Positions 37,555 to 47,100 of a DNA stretch of 64,000 bases are shown here, one piece after another. The notes beneath the pieces are model-generated. The model ran no database searches. It saw nothing but the letters and a program-made list of their open reading frames with translations, and was not told the DNA's origin. The stretch is from Candidatus Heteroclostridium caecigallinarum (GTDB lineage: Bacteria > Bacillota > Clostridia > Christensenellales > CAG-314), in the NCBI GenBank assembly GCA_904419725.1, contig CAJFSP010000001.1:193814-257813 (forward strand), given 5' to 3'. Both the position numbers and the translations under genes were made by a program. Position 1 is the first letter of the stretch. Each line of letters begins with the position of its first letter.

Positions 37555-40500
37555 TCACCTCACTTCAATCCTGTTAGCACCCGCCAGACTTTCGCCCAAA
37601 CGGCTATCGTTCCCTGAATCATAATTACCGGACACATATCCGCCGGAACATACCGCCGTATGGCTGCTCGCGATAATTTCGTTAACTGTAATTTCGGCTC
37701 CGACGCCGTCCCATGTAGATATTGCGTTTCTGCTACAAGAAGCGCCGATAGCCCCGTTTATATAGTAAGGATATAAGTTTTGCCCAAAAATAGTAGTACC
37801 ATAGTGCCGCTCGCTGACGCCGATAAACGTGCCGCCGGAAATCTGTACATTGTGATTGGTAGGCACGGCGTTGAAATACAATCCCGAGCGCGTGCCTTTG
37901 AACTCACCGCCGGAAATGGTAAGGCCGTTTCTTTCAGACGACGCGTGATTATACAATACACCGTTAAATCCGCTGAAATTGCCCCCGCTAATGCTGACGG
38001 CGTTTTCAGTAAGGGCAGCGTCCAACATCAAACCGGAAGACCGTGAATCCGTTGTCCCCGTGCCCGTAAACGTGCCGTTTGTAATAGTGAGTTCAACGCG
38101 TCCTTCGCCGTACCAAACGCCATTGCCGTAATCAGTGTCTTTGCTGCTGAACGTGCCGCCGTTGATTGTGACGGAAGAACCCGCGTCACCGCGGTATTCG
38201 ACAGTCATGCCCGCTTCCGCACCGGTGACAGTAATATCGCCACCCGCGCCGTCTTCACCGCCGCGAGGAGTAAACGTAACGTCAACATATTCAAACACCG
38301 AAAAAGCCGCCTGACCTTTTACATCAAATGTCCCGCCGTAAATATTGGCTTTCGCCTGATTGGTCGAAGTACCCATGACAAACGCACCGCTGCCGCTTGA
38401 GCCTTTGCCGAAAGTGCCGCCGTAAATGTTGGCTGTGCCGCCGTACATTTTGAAGGCGTATGACGCGGCGGGACCGGCAAGCAGTCCGTTTTTTTGGGAA
38501 CTATAGTTATCGTTGCCGTCAAAGTTTCCGCCCCATATATTAGCGGTGCCGTCGCGGACAAGAATACCTTCACCTTGCGCCGCCGAATAAGTACCGTTAT
38601 ATACCGTCAGCGTTCCGCCGCTGACTTCAATCGCGTGGCCGCCGGTTCTGCTGAGCCTGTAATTCCAGTTATCGCCGTTTGCCTGCTGCTCATAAAATGT
38701 GTTAAATAACATATCGCCTGTGGTCGTGATTGTAATATCGGAAGGTGAGTTCGTACTTCCATTTCCCATGTAAACGTCGCCGCCGGAAACATAAAGACCG
38801 CCGCCACTGGTATTGCTAATATCACTCTTAAAAATAGTGACTTTCGTGTCAATACCATCCGTACCTTCAACACGCACGGCAAAACTTCTTATCTCATAGT
38901 TGCGATATCTCTCGTTTTCGTCATAATCCCCCTGATTCTCAATATTCGCCACGCCGGTATGATTTACGTTGAACGTGCCGTTTGCCGTCAGCGAGCCGCC
39001 CTGAATATACACGCCGTTGTATATGTTGACATTAGCGTTGCCGCCCGCCTGATTGCCTTCTTCGTCGGGAGGAGTCACCCAGCCATAAGCTTCGTTTATA
39101 GTGCTGGTGATCTCCGCCGTTGTTTCTTCATTTATCGTCAGATTGCCGCCGTTGATGTAAATCGCCGTGCCGTTTTTCGACGTGAGCGTGAACTCTGTCG
39201 TCGAAATATTTATACTGGCGCCGCTTCTGGCGGTGATGCCGAGACCGTCAGTCGTTATGGTCGCGCTGCCGCCCGCAATGGAAATGTCGCCCCCCTCGGA
39301 ACTGATTGCCGCGCTTGACAGAAGATTATCCGTCATCCCTACAATAGTACTATTATATTCGCCGTCAACGCTGATATTTCCGCCATATGCCAATATACCG
39401 GCGGAATACGTTCCGTTGACGTCTATCACGGTTGAGCCGCAGCAGTCGACCGTGCCGCCTGCGGAGTAAATGCCGCGGGCATAACTGCCGACCATGTCAA
39501 ACAAGCAATTTGTCGCCTTTATCGTGCCGCCGCCCGAATATATGCCGTAAATACTGTTATAATTGCCGCCCTGACCGACATTGAAAACCGTGTCGGAAAC
39601 TGTCACCGAGCCTGCCGCGCCGCCTGACGTTTCCGATGAAATGCCGCGTGTGGAAGAGCCTGCGATTGTGAAAATTATTTTATTTTGCGCGCTGCCCGTG
39701 ACAGACAGCGTGCCGCCGCTGACGGAAATGCCGTTCATATAATTTCCGGTCAGGTTAAATCCGATAGCCGACGACGTGGAAGAGACGTACAGTTCGCCGC
39801 CGGTCATGGATATCGCCGAACCGTTGTCCTGCGAAGAAGCAAACTCCGCCGTTATTTTCTTTGTAAACGACACGTCGCCCGACACACGCATAAGCCCGCC
39901 CGACACCGCTATCGTGTCGCCCGTCTGCGAGTAAAAATCACCGCTGGCGACGCGCAGATATTCATCCTCCGAAACAGAGCCGTAAGAAATGCTCACGCAT
40001 TTACCCGCGCCGTGCGCCTGAAAACTGCCGACGCCGTTTTCAACCGCCATGTATCCGCCCGTGGCGTATACGCAGTAAGTACTGTCATTGCCGAAATATG
40101 AAACGTAATCGCCGCCGCGCACATACAGGTTGCCGCTGTTCATCTGAATGGCGGCGTACGTCGCCGCGCTTTGGGCGGCGCTCATGACGCCGTTGTAGCC
40201 GTAAACGGTAACCTCAATCTCTTCCGCTCCGCTGCTTTCAGCTGCGGAGTACACCACGCCCGAGCCGTCAAAAGAACGGTAAAGAGTGTAGGTATAATAA
40301 AAATCCGCGCTGCCGTTGTCCGCCGCTATCAGCGAGTTGGAAACGCTGTCGTCCGACACGGTAAAATAGAGATAAGCGTCCTTTGAAATCCCTATTGATG
40401 ACGCGTCGGCGTCGAAATAGAAATTGCCGTTTACGCTGTGCTGCGGCGTGCCTCCGTCTGACGGCGCGCTACCCACATTGGTTACCGCGGGAATAATGAC

Positions 40501-41151
40501 AGGCATATTTTCTTGCCGTTCGGTATATCCGCCGTCGTTTTTTTCATAATACGCCACGCTTGCCGTACCGTTTATTTCGGCGCCCGCTTTATTGCGCCAA
40601 ACGCCGTCTGTCTGATAAGCGTATTCGGAAGAATAGACAGCCGAGTCGCCGGCGAGGTTTTCGCCGTCTCTCGGGCCGCTTTCAAACAGCCCTGCCGCCA
40701 CAGTCAGCGTGCCGCCGCTTATGCGCAGAACGCTGCCGACAGGGTTATAAAAACTGCCGGTCTGCTTTTCCGACGTGTCGATAATAGTGAGTCTGACGCC
40801 TTCCGTCACGTTGAGCATAGGCTCCCTGTTGTTTCGCTGCAATTCATGGCCGTTGAGGTCTATCGTCAAATCGGAATTGACATCGGACACACTGCCGGTG
40901 ATGATAAGCGGATTGTCGACGTCGTCAGACACTTTGATATTGCTGTAACCGTTTTCGATTGCGGAGAAAAACTCGTCAACCGAGTGGATTTCAACCTGTT
41001 CAGAGACGATATATTCCAGACTGCCGGAATATTCGCTGCCAGAGGTCAACTCTTTTGAATATCTGCCCTGCGTCAGCGAAACGCTCATGAGCGTGACAAT
41101 AAGCAGAGATATCAGCGCGCAAAGCGCGGCGTTTCTTTTTCCGACAGTCAT
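37555..41151 (-). CDS. 1198-aa secreted right-handed beta-helix repeat protein with a SipW-class N-terminal signal
   Basis: The N-terminus is K/R, a hydrophobic helix (AALCALISLLIVTLMSV), then SLTQGRYSKE. More than 20 irregularly spaced GG[TSDEN][LFI]-type rungs follow (ISGGTLTV, VSGGTLSV, INGGNLTI, IYGGTFGK, ISGGNFSG, ISGGTFIG ...). It has no LPXTG, SLH or C-terminal TM. The RBS GAAGGGGGTGG precedes it and its start overlaps the upstream stop as ATGA. Confidence 0.85.
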   Translation of the reverse strand: MTVGKRNAALCALISLLIVTLMSVSLTQGRYSKELTSGSEYSGSLEYIVSEQVEIHSVDEFFSAIENGYSNIKVSDDVDNPLIITGSVSDVNSDLTIDLNGHELQRNNREPMLNVTEGVRLTIIDTSEKQTGSFYNPVGSVLRISGGTLTVAAGLFESGPRDGENLAGDSAVYSSEYAYQTDGVWRNKAGAEINGTASVAYYEKNDGGYTERQENMPVIIPAVTNVGSAPSDGGTPQHSVNGNFYFDADASSIGISKDAYLYFTVSDDSVSNSLIAADNGSADFYYTYTLYRSFDGSGVVYSAAESSGAEEIEVTVYGYNGVMSAAQSAATYAAIQMNSGNLYVRGGDYVSYFGNDSTYCVYATGGYMAVENGVGSFQAHGAGKCVSISYGSVSEDEYLRVASGDFYSQTGDTIAVSGGLMRVSGDVSFTKKITAEFASSQDNGSAISMTGGELYVSSTSSAIGFNLTGNYMNGISVSGGTLSVTGSAQNKIIFTIAGSSTRGISSETSGGAAGSVTVSDTVFNVGQGGNYNSIYGIYSGGGTIKATNCLFDMVGSYARGIYSAGGTVDCCGSTVIDVNGTYSAGILAYGGNISVDGEYNSTIVGMTDNLLSSAAISSEGGDISIAGGSATITTDGLGITARSGASINISTTEFTLTSKNGTAIYINGGNLTINEETTAEITSTINEAYGWVTPPDEEGNQAGGNANVNIYNGVYIQGGSLTANGTFNVNHTGVANIENQGDYDENERYRNYEIRSFAVRVEGTDGIDTKVTIFKSDISNTSGGGLYVSGGDVYMGNGSTNSPSDITITTTGDMLFNTFYEQQANGDNWNYRLSRTGGHAIEVSGGTLTVYNGTYSAAQGEGILVRDGTANIWGGNFDGNDNYSSQKNGLLAGPAASYAFKMYGGTANIYGGTFGKGSSGSGAFVMGTSTNQAKANIYGGTFDVKGQAAFSVFEYVDVTFTPRGGEDGAGGDITVTGAEAGMTVEYRGDAGSSVTINGGTFSSKDTDYGNGVWYGEGRVELTITNGTFTGTGTTDSRSSGLMLDAALTENAVSISGGNFSGFNGVLYNHASSERNGLTISGGEFKGTRSGLYFNAVPTNHNVQISGGTFIGVSERHYGTTIFGQNLYPYYINGAIGASCSRNAISTWDGVGAEITVNEIIASSHTAVCSGGYVSGNYDSGNDSRLGESLAGANRIEVR

Positions 41152-46483: not shown

Positions 46484-46779
46484 AAACTCTCCCGTTTTGT
46501 CAAAAATCTCTTTTATTTACACGCAAGTATAGTGTAATTTAACTTCATTGTCAACTCAAAAATGTTTTAGATATAGTTAAAAGTTGTAGTAAACTTAACA
46601 CGTATCGAGACGAAAGGTCAAAAATGATAATAAAAAATATTTTTTCATTTATAAAAATATTCCCCTTTCGCCGAAAATACCGTTAAAAAAACAAACGCGG
46701 CAATCGCTTATCGGCGCGGTTGGGTATTACGTCAGGCAAACCAATCCGTCAGTTCGGACAGTTTGCATTCAGTGGTATT

Positions 46780-47100
46780 ATGGACATCATCGACAAACTA
46801 AACAGATTGCGGCTTGAACGCAACATGAGCGTTTACAGGCTGGCGGAACTCTCAGGCATAAATCAATCCACTTTGGCAAACACGTTTTCACGGGGCACCG
46901 TGCCGTCAATCCACACTCTGGAAGCGGTGTGCTCCGCCATGGGCTTTACGTTGGCGCAGTTTTTCAGCGAGGACGAAGCCGTGGTGCGGCTTACGCCTGA
47001 AGAGGCGCGATTCTTTGAAAACTACAAACGTCTGCCGCCGGACATAAAAAAATCGGTAAACGACATAGTCAGCGCTTTTGTTTCAGGGCAAAAAGAATGA
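46780..47100 (+). CDS. XRE-family HTH regulator (SinR-like architecture)
   Basis: 106-aa ORF with the N-terminal HTH (RNMSVYRLAELSGINQSTLANTFSRG) and a helical tail. It is divergent from the sipW-like gene across a 296-bp AT-rich spacer. The ATG at 46780 is chosen over the TTG at 46720. Confidence 0.75.
   Translation: MDIIDKLNRLRLERNMSVYRLAELSGINQSTLANTFSRGTVPSIHTLEAVCSAMGFTLAQFFSEDEAVVRLTPEEARFFENYKRLPPDIKKSVNDIVSAFVSGQKE

Follow-up and report, generated by a model that had tools for sequence, protein, structure and literature searches.

What is built by a cluster of six genes that encodes two signal peptidases together with their candidate substrates? The cluster lies in a 64,000-nt (64 kb) stretch of Candidatus Heteroclostridium caecigallinarum DNA (contig CAJFSP010000001.1, GC about 51%), which we analysed as a whole and call the window. 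According to the table of open reading frames (ORFs), the six genes are consecutive, all on the minus strand, and span 37555-46483. To our knowledge, the non-flagellar surface fibres of monoderm bacteria comprise sortase pili, type IV pili and TasA-type fibres, and we know of little on such fibres in the uncultured Clostridia that dominate animal guts. On balance we lean towards reading the cluster as a sortase-independent cell-surface fibre or display system, using Sec and two dedicated peptidases of the archaeal/endoplasmic reticulum (ER) type. The peptidase type, a leader shared by three products, the paralogy of two products, the synteny and the pattern of variation support this reading, and we infer polymerisation.

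The first-pass annotation of this DNA described six packed minus-strand genes with overlaps, a terminator and a divergent helix-turn-helix (HTH) gene, all of which are present in the sequence. The junctions read from the sequence include ATGA at 41148-41151 and TAAATG at 43192-43197, and the genes of peptidase B and of a 507-aa protein overlap by 17 nt (ATGAAAAGACAAACTAA, 42655-42671). The packing is incomplete, with a 215-nt spacer between the gene of peptidase A and that of a 228-aa subunit, and a second true spacer of about 180-220 nt 3' of the subunit gene. The cluster is closed by an intrinsic terminator with a T-run on the minus strand (37475-37503): its 13-bp stem contains 8 G-C pairs, its loop has 3 nt, and TTTTTTGT follows. 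The third gene measures 550 aa under the longest-ORF rule, from a GTG at 44847; according to public gene callers its true start is probably at 44694 (499 aa) or 44655 (486 aa).

Peptidase A (234 aa, 45779-46483, minus strand) and peptidase B (179 aa, 42655-43194, minus strand) score 72.1 and 78.1 bits against the archaeal/ER (SipW) type model TIGR02228, which has a cut-off of 51.85 bits. The two sequences share 35% identity. Among 46 homologues of peptidase A and 44 of peptidase B, the motifs SGSM, THR and GDAN show no or almost no variation. We take these motifs to hold the catalytic Ser, His and Asp, following published work on SipW, with Ser-His in place of the Ser-Lys dyad of bacterial-type signal peptidase I. 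The earlier call of two S26B (ER/archaeal, SipW-like) peptidases is thereby confirmed. Against the Bacillus SipW equivalog NF046067 both proteins reach 71.5 bits, compared with a cut-off of 190, and judged by these profile scores the label "SipW-type" is justified and the label "SipW orthologue" is not. Peptidase A ends in an acidic, coiled-coil-like tail of about 55 residues (45779-45940) past its last hydrophobic segment, a feature that it shares with its homologue in locus L059 and that peptidase B does not have. The tail is presumably cytoplasmic; the C-terminus of Bacillus subtilis SipW reportedly has a regulatory role.

What would these enzymes cleave? Three products of the cluster, of 228, 507 and 1198 aa, begin with a common leader, formed by a basic stretch, a hydrophobic segment and then T-[FLQY]-[AGS]-R-[YF]-[STV]. 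The motif is kept in all three families (36-49 genomes per family) and is found in no other ORF of the window. The -3/-1 rule predicts cuts between A31 and R32 in the 228-aa protein, S30 and R31 in the 507-aa protein, and G29 and R30 in the 1198-aa protein. The SipW-cognate signal model TIGR04088 matches none of the three window leaders, nor three leaders from the wider class described below, at E up to 10; as a positive control in the same run, TasA scored 38 bits against a cut-off of 19. By this comparison, the shared leader differs from the known SipW-cognate class.

The 228-aa protein (44877-45563, minus strand) is the putative major small subunit, with a leader of residues 1-31, a flexible N-terminal strand and then a predicted beta-sandwich. 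It has 731 homologues in a large protein collection, none with a Pfam domain, and the sole source name that we saw among them is "hypothetical protein". The leader is the best-conserved part of the family, with a mean column identity of 82%, compared with 75% for residues 32-50 and 35-49% in the loops. In the AlphaFold2 (AF2) model, with a predicted local distance difference test score (pLDDT) of 81 and a predicted template modelling score (pTM) of 0.71, a leader helix is followed by disordered residues 29-45 and an all-beta body. The N-terminal segment after the leader is conserved yet disordered in monomer models, which is unexpected for a simple secreted monomer.

A Foldseek search with the subunit model, leader included, gave nothing below E = 1e-3 and template modelling scores (TM-scores) of 0.24-0.34. 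The top match, itself weak, is 4lr4 (EUBREC_3654, E = 5.6e-3), an uncharacterised secreted protein of Eubacterium rectale. Further weak matches are to donor-strand filament subunits, namely AbpA (7ueg, E = 0.018), TLP-1a/b (9ikj, E = 0.042; 9ikk) and CanA (9hdi, E = 0.19). The structural evidence on the subunit is weak, and the model points in the same direction as the operon logic. Searches of PDB sequences with phmmer, using the 228-, 507- and 1198-aa proteins, and with the family profiles gave nothing meaningful.

The third gene encodes a bitopic membrane protein (43195-44694, minus strand) with one transmembrane segment (43728-43672) and a conserved C-terminal ectodomain (43671-43198). The hydropathy maximum, 3.23, falls on residue 374 as counted in the 550-aa ORF. 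The N-terminal part (43729-44694 in the window) is variable and presumably cytoplasmic; it ranges between species from about 110 to about 520 residues before the transmembrane segment and ends in G-x-x-[IV]-G-x-[IV] repeats. In distant relatives the repeats have weak matches to beta-flower families, with PF21785 matched in 7 of 94 members (best E = 6e-5). The ectodomain has a mean column identity of 56% over 45 sequences and is covered by no Pfam family. An exhaustive HMMER search of 1.84 billion representative proteins found 1,310 ectodomain relatives with a threshold of E = 1e-3, of which 624 also pass 1e-10. In 144 of the 149 best relatives the domain is C-terminal, with the transmembrane segment upstream.

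How is this ectodomain related to the subunit? Direct hhalign comparison of the window-clade families is marginal (subunit versus ectodomain P = 0.002, 22 columns). When broader families are added, small subunits align with ectodomains at 96.7% (E = 3.7e-10, 111 columns), the broad subunits with the window-clade subunit at 97.2% (E = 4.5e-11, 161 columns), and second with first small subunits at 98.4%. Subunit and ectodomain have in common a strand pair, I-A-P-G-x-x-G-x-Y-x-F-x-V-x-N, and the C-terminal elements W-x-W ... D-T-x-x-G ... A-x-Q. By this transitive link of sequence profiles, the bitopic ectodomain is a paralogue of the small-subunit family. Of the original description, a bitopic protein with a TasA-like ectodomain, the membrane topology and the kinship to the subunit stand, and the TasA label does not. 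Cleavage of the bitopic protein at a subunit-like site was also considered and is provisionally rejected, as the motif at the junction is only loosely similar and not conserved; the protein may nevertheless be cleaved.

The remaining two products are larger. The 507-aa protein (41148-42671, minus strand) is predicted to be exported and all-beta, with an AF2 model of pLDDT 86.9 and pTM 0.81 in which residues 28-40 are disordered. Foldseek found no structural neighbour of this model in the PDB, the best matches being lectin-like or capsid jelly rolls with TM-scores of about 0.1. The 1198-aa protein (37555-41151, minus strand) is a predicted exported repeat protein with no Pfam match and no PDB sequence match. 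Its internal repeats cover about residues 330-1040 (self-hhalign E = 2.5e-26, offset of about 56 columns), and its composition is rich in Gly (14.9%), Ser (11.7%), Thr (9%) and Asn (7.5%). Both repeats and composition are compatible with a beta-solenoid, which is plausible, and these two features are what the beta-helix label of the first-pass annotation can draw on. The first approximately 140 mature residues are the most conserved and the last approximately 160 the least; the C-terminal approximately 460 residues (38946-37555) are variable. With the subunits the giant protein shares just the leader and the segment after it. In lax Pfam/NCBIfam scans of all families, the peptidases and the HTH protein were the only ones recognised.

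Does the cluster exist as a unit outside the window? A scan of one genome per species identified 48 species-level genomes with the family, all from uncultured animal-gut Clostridia (Candidatus Gallimonas, Fimimonas, Scatosoma, Protoclostridium and Coproplasma). The two genera that we looked up, Gallimonas and Protoclostridium, are filed by NCBI under Clostridia incertae sedis. All six genes are found in the same order in 31 of the 48 genomes, and nearly all the remaining ones are cut by contig ends. Since the same genes and order recur with differing flanks, the arrangement is not due to chance; the flanking genes differ between genera, and thus the cluster moves or persists as a unit. Co-occurrence in Clostridia, which had been proposed as a check, is therefore found, and the core of the cluster recurs in metagenomic loci as well.

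A minimal module is seen in one distant relative, with four genes for a peptidase, a 224-aa subunit, a bitopic protein and a second peptidase. A metagenome scan seeded with a distant subgroup found 80 loci, many from gut or rumen; the counts that follow refer to loci with enough DNA. In 29/36 loci the gene directly upstream of the ectodomain gene is subunit-like, and in 50/59 the one immediately downstream encodes a SipW-type peptidase. In 22/44 this peptidase gene is followed in turn by a second small subunit-like gene, in the position that is occupied in the window by the 507-aa protein. The duplicated peptidase is present in the window as first described, but it is not peculiar to it, as at least two peptidases are found within 3 kb in 11/29 loci of the wider class. 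Behind the core there often follow large proteins (460-1614 aa) in which an N-terminal motif of the same kind is present, and the 1198-aa protein occupies this usual cargo position. Six of the eight cargo proteins scanned contain Flg_new repeats, and some also Big_2, DUF285 or Y_phosphatase3; Flg_new, Big_2 and DUF285 are modules of surface proteins. Three cargo proteins with the cognate motif (in loci L084, L101 and L119) end in Y_phosphatase3 (E = 1e-19 to 3e-20), which suggests that the system may display enzymes besides adhesins.

The window cluster is an elaborated member of this general design of peptidase, subunit, anchored paralogue and peptidase, and the wide family is without cover in any curated protein-family resource. 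In public records the products are called only "signal peptidase I" or "hypothetical protein". We came across no description of this gene combination in literature searches that covered SipW, TasA-like and related terms, in line with the earlier remark that it did not resemble a described system.

Further evidence comes from the window and the assemblies L007, L146 and L147, all four of the same species, whose flanking DNA is 96.5-99% identical. Among them both peptidases, the bitopic protein and the 507-aa protein have 98-100% protein identity. The mature subunit has merely 40-42% identity between most assembly pairs. The last 450 residues of the 1198-aa protein fall into two classes, with 88% identity within and 45-55% between classes, and the variants of the subunit and of the giant C-terminus assort independently. 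In the DNA, breakpoints map to both conserved ends of the subunit gene (45398-45414 and 44882-44912), and the giant gene has one at 38946. Clustering at 90% identity shows the same pattern: each conserved gene has 84-158 members, the subunit has 3 and the giant protein 5. The body of the subunit gene (45398-44912) and the 3' third of the giant gene (38946-37508) are divergent alleles that are swapped between strains of the same species. Such a pattern would resemble the variation of pilins, flagellins and other structures that are exposed on the surface and under selection.

The subunit gene also differs in its expression signals. It has its own strong ribosome-binding site (RBS), AAAGGAGG, and is followed by a structured spacer (44695-44876, minus strand) with a minimum free energy of -83.5 kcal/mol (z = -3.5); none of 200 shuffled sequences folds as well. 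The spacer opens with a terminator-like hairpin, continues with further hairpins and is conserved among strains; no Rfam family was matched in the region, this spacer included. The strong RBS and the structured spacer suggest an excess of the subunit over the downstream products. In the spacer upstream of the subunit gene there is a homopolymer tract at 45739-45750 (G12 on the plus strand, C12 on the gene strand), whose length is 12 or 11 across otherwise near-identical assemblies. Of 45 related loci, 6 have G/C runs of at least 8 in this spacer. The change in length could be phase variation, or merely homopolymer sequencing error.

Upstream of the cluster, an XRE-family HTH regulator is encoded divergently, on the plus strand (46720-47100; HTH_26 E = 4e-9, HTH_3 E = 2e-7). 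It probably starts at the ATG at 46780 (106 aa), as in public gene callers. Its Pfam matches are limited to these two generic HTH families, with no SinI/SinR-type oligomerisation domain among them. The SlrR model scores it at 14.7 bits, with a cut-off of 250, so that of the proposed SinR-like regulator nothing beyond XRE-family membership is retained. The AT-rich spacer between the regulator and the cluster (46484-46779, 296 nt, GC 33.8%) contains overlapping divergent promoter-like sites, both of which are consensus matches only. Towards the cluster, on the minus strand, the site is TTGACA-17-TATACT (46554-46526, 11/12 consensus matches), and towards the regulator, on the plus strand, it is TTGTCA-18-TATAGT (46548-46577). 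A regulator homologue is found upstream in about one third of the related loci, divergent in all but one of these. A bidirectional terminator-like hairpin with a 15-bp stem on both strands lies 3' of the regulator gene (47107-47144). Just past this gene, the related strain L007 has a 1.7-kb insertion (its positions 6398-8104) relative to about 47445-47463 of the window, carrying genes for an acetyltransferase, a MerR regulator and a DUF4097 protein.

In a Gallimonas-type clade (L009, L011, L014, L015, L016, L026, L027, L036 and L048) the cassette lies between spoIIGA-sigE and sigG. L036 differs in that sigG comes right after a subunit-like ORF of 328 aa, as though the remainder of the cassette were absent.

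Could the product, then, be part of the coat or an appendage linked to sporulation, made in the sporangium and not in vegetative cells? The position beside sporulation sigma factors in about nine genomes would fit, and TasA was first described as spore-associated, with the PDB name "Spore coat-associated protein N". However, in the window and in most other genomes the flanks are unrelated housekeeping genes, and the window cluster has its own sigma-70-like promoter, by consensus match, as well as a dedicated regulator. The window itself lends no support to a sporulation role, although no search for sporulation promoters was made, and we regard such a role as very improbable. A prophage or tail-fibre module was rejected as well, given the housekeeping flanks and the chromosomal site that differs among genera.

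Is the cluster instead a known fibre operon that has diverged? It might be an orthologous tapA-sipW-tasA or sipW-bsaA biofilm-matrix operon under SinR-type control, with a diverged TasA (Peptidase_M73) member as its subunit. The operon logic is the same, with a SipW-type peptidase beside small beta-rich exported proteins and a divergent XRE regulator. In B. subtilis tapA-sipW-tasA, too, a dedicated ER/archaeal-type peptidase is encoded beside its substrates, there is no sortase and an XRE regulator is nearby. TasA is likewise a small exported beta-rich main subunit with a flexible N-terminal segment past the cut site, and the accessory protein TapA has the N-terminal segment of the subunit. 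TasA fibres assemble by donor-strand exchange (PMC9674648, PMC10151520).

The profile comparisons do not bear this orthology out. PF12389 (Peptidase_M73) matches none of the approximately 230 family members scanned, with E limits of 10 for ectodomains and for the small subunits of the broad class, and of 0.1 for the window proteins. TIGR04088, TIGR04089 and TIGR04090 match TasA and not these leaders. Among PDB sequences, the family profiles retrieved neither TasA nor CalY nor any other filament subunit. We also aligned the families by hhalign to B. subtilis TasA (identical to 8AUR) together with six plasmid TasA/CalY proteins, a shallow alignment (Neff 2.2), and obtained P = 0.1-0.4. The best of these non-significant segments lie on the equivalent motifs PG-x-x-x-F-x-x-N-G and, at the C-terminus, F-x-F-x-A-x-Q, which is in favour of orthology. 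So are the weak matches of the TapA model TIGR04087 to 7 of 45 small subunits of the wider class (best E = 0.016); the window proteins do not match it. The scores of the peptidases against the Bacillus SipW equivalog (71 bits versus 190) and of the regulator against SlrR are far from the cut-offs. Together these results leave orthology hardly probable at all.

By sequence, the label "TasA-like" is not supported (PF12389, TIGR04088, hhalign), and the Foldseek matches to filament subunits are weak; the first-pass annotation was right in outline, with labels that are wrong or unproven. A distant tie to the TasA superfamily may exist, since in published work AbpA and CanX are tied to TasA only via sensitive profile and structure methods. 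Compared with tapA-sipW-tasA, the window cluster has two peptidases and not one, a membrane-anchored subunit paralogue, and the 507- and 1198-aa accessories. Its cut-site motif is T-x-A/R-Y-T (the slash marking the cut), compared with G-T-W-A/A-F-N-D. There is no detectable sequence or profile tie to TasA/PF12389 or TIGR04088, and the subunit is hypervariable between strains.

Other known systems share parts of the design. The sipW-bsaA-bsaB-bsaC operon of Clostridium perfringens has a SipW peptidase, two small matrix subunits and one large accessory with a signal peptide (PMC7395162, PMC11580942). In the model proposed for Bsa, assembly takes place at the membrane while the leader of the incoming subunit still tethers it (PMC7395162, PMC11580942). 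Unlike the cluster described here, the bsa operon is without a second peptidase and without a bitopic paralogue. BsaA is isopeptide-locked and the export of BsaC requires type IV pilus proteins (PMC7395162, PMC11580942); neither feature was seen in the window cluster, where no search aimed at them was made. Remote TasA homology has been reported for BsaA and BsaB, and TasA weakly matches the BsaA-family model TIGR04090, whereas the leaders here do not. The B. cereus sipW-tasA-capP-calY locus is also sortase-independent and has two subunit paralogues and an envelope-associated accessory that controls assembly (PMC13082335). By its description, CapP is chaperone-like and not a subunit paralogue, and TasA and CalY belong to PF12389, unlike the proteins here.

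The best structural neighbours, weak and unreliable as they are, belong to archaeal AbpA bundling pili (7UEG), CanA cannulae (9HDI) and environmental TLP-1 fibrils (9IKJ/9IKK). Their subunits are beta-sandwiches or jelly rolls joined through an N-terminal donor strand, and they are kin to TasA at the profile or structure level. In contrast to the window cluster, the AbpA operon has no dedicated peptidase, and none of these systems has a bitopic paralogue or a giant cargo protein.

None of the six proteins contains LPXTG, and among the genes within about 10 kb on either side no Pfam match to a sortase, secretion ATPase or prepilin peptidase was found. These absences had been noted from the start, along with that of SLH, for which no separate search was made. 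A sortase pilus, without LPXTG motif and sortase, was rejected. So was a type IV or Tad pilus, there being no prepilin peptidase or ATPase nearby and the leaders ending after, not before, the hydrophobic segment. A functional analogy can be drawn with chaperone-usher and sortase pili, where an adhesin forms the tip, the major subunit polymerises and varies antigenically, and another subunit terminates or anchors the structure. Here, however, there is no usher, chaperone, sortase or LPXTG, the host is monoderm, and the donor-strand polarity that we propose would be opposite to that of chaperone-usher pili.

How would such a fibre be made? In the mechanism that we propose, Sec would export the three substrates, which would remain tethered by their leaders. 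The peptidases would cleave after the small residue and release the conserved flexible N-terminal segment (RYTSGGNGSASTGVAAWKI in the subunit). The released segment would act as a donor strand and enter the beta-sandwich of the next, still-tethered subunit, and in this way the 228-aa protein would polymerise, with growth from the base; the base-growth step is taken from the model proposed for BsaA. The 507- and 1198-aa proteins, which have the strand and no detectable acceptor domain, would fill the first open groove and become distal tip or cargo. The bitopic paralogue, having a sandwich and a tethered N-terminus, would accept the last strand and thereby hold the fibre to the membrane. The expression level and the ratio of subunits would be set by the XRE regulator together with the strong RBS, the structured spacer 3' of the subunit gene and, possibly, the homopolymer tract. 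The two peptidases might have different substrates or act as a pair.

Several points weigh against this proposal. The donor-strand polymerisation, which we infer, is built on monomer models, and the polarity of the model and the tip and anchor roles are conjecture. No Foldseek match of the subunit reaches E = 1e-3 and TasA is absent from the top 50, and the comparisons with TasA, CalY, PF12389 and TIGR04088 are all negative. The 507-aa protein aligns weakly with the subunits in hhalign, at the N- and C-termini only (P = 0.003-0.04). Finally, the mechanism gives no reason for having two peptidases.

The same peptidases, shared leader, paralogy and co-occurrence would fit equally well a dedicated export and maturation module without polymerisation. 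In such a module the peptidases would process private monomeric proteins, and the bitopic paralogue would be a receptor, chaperone or docking site. The weakness of the matches to filament subunits is in its favour, and so are the enzyme domains, e.g. Y_phosphatase3, in some cargo of related loci. However, a module of monomers does not explain well why the segment after the cut is conserved yet disordered in the monomer models, nor why there is a membrane-tethered paralogue that duplicates the small subunit, and often a second small subunit besides. A stoichiometric excess of one component is, moreover, suggested by the strong RBS and the spacer structure. We consider a non-polymerising module possible, although unlikely, and return to the fibre or display system.

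Seen across the family, the cluster may belong to a previously unrecognised, widespread class of Gram-positive fibres, a proposal that we make tentatively and with somewhat more doubt than belief. The class would be defined by one or two private SipW-type peptidases, one or two small donor-strand subunits, a membrane-anchored subunit paralogue that terminates and anchors the fibre, large modular cargo or adhesins recruited through the shared N-terminal strand alone, and, in gut commensals, allelic cassettes of the major subunit and the cargo tip that strains exchange. If it is real, the exchange of alleles is presumably under immune, phage or niche selection. If the fibre is built as proposed, a signal peptidase and a tethered paralogue could replace the usher or the sortase, and a short N-terminal strand would be enough to mount large proteins on the cell surface. 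The swapping of alleles at the strain level makes the subunit and the giant protein likely targets of host immunity or phages, and possible markers for the tracking of strains.

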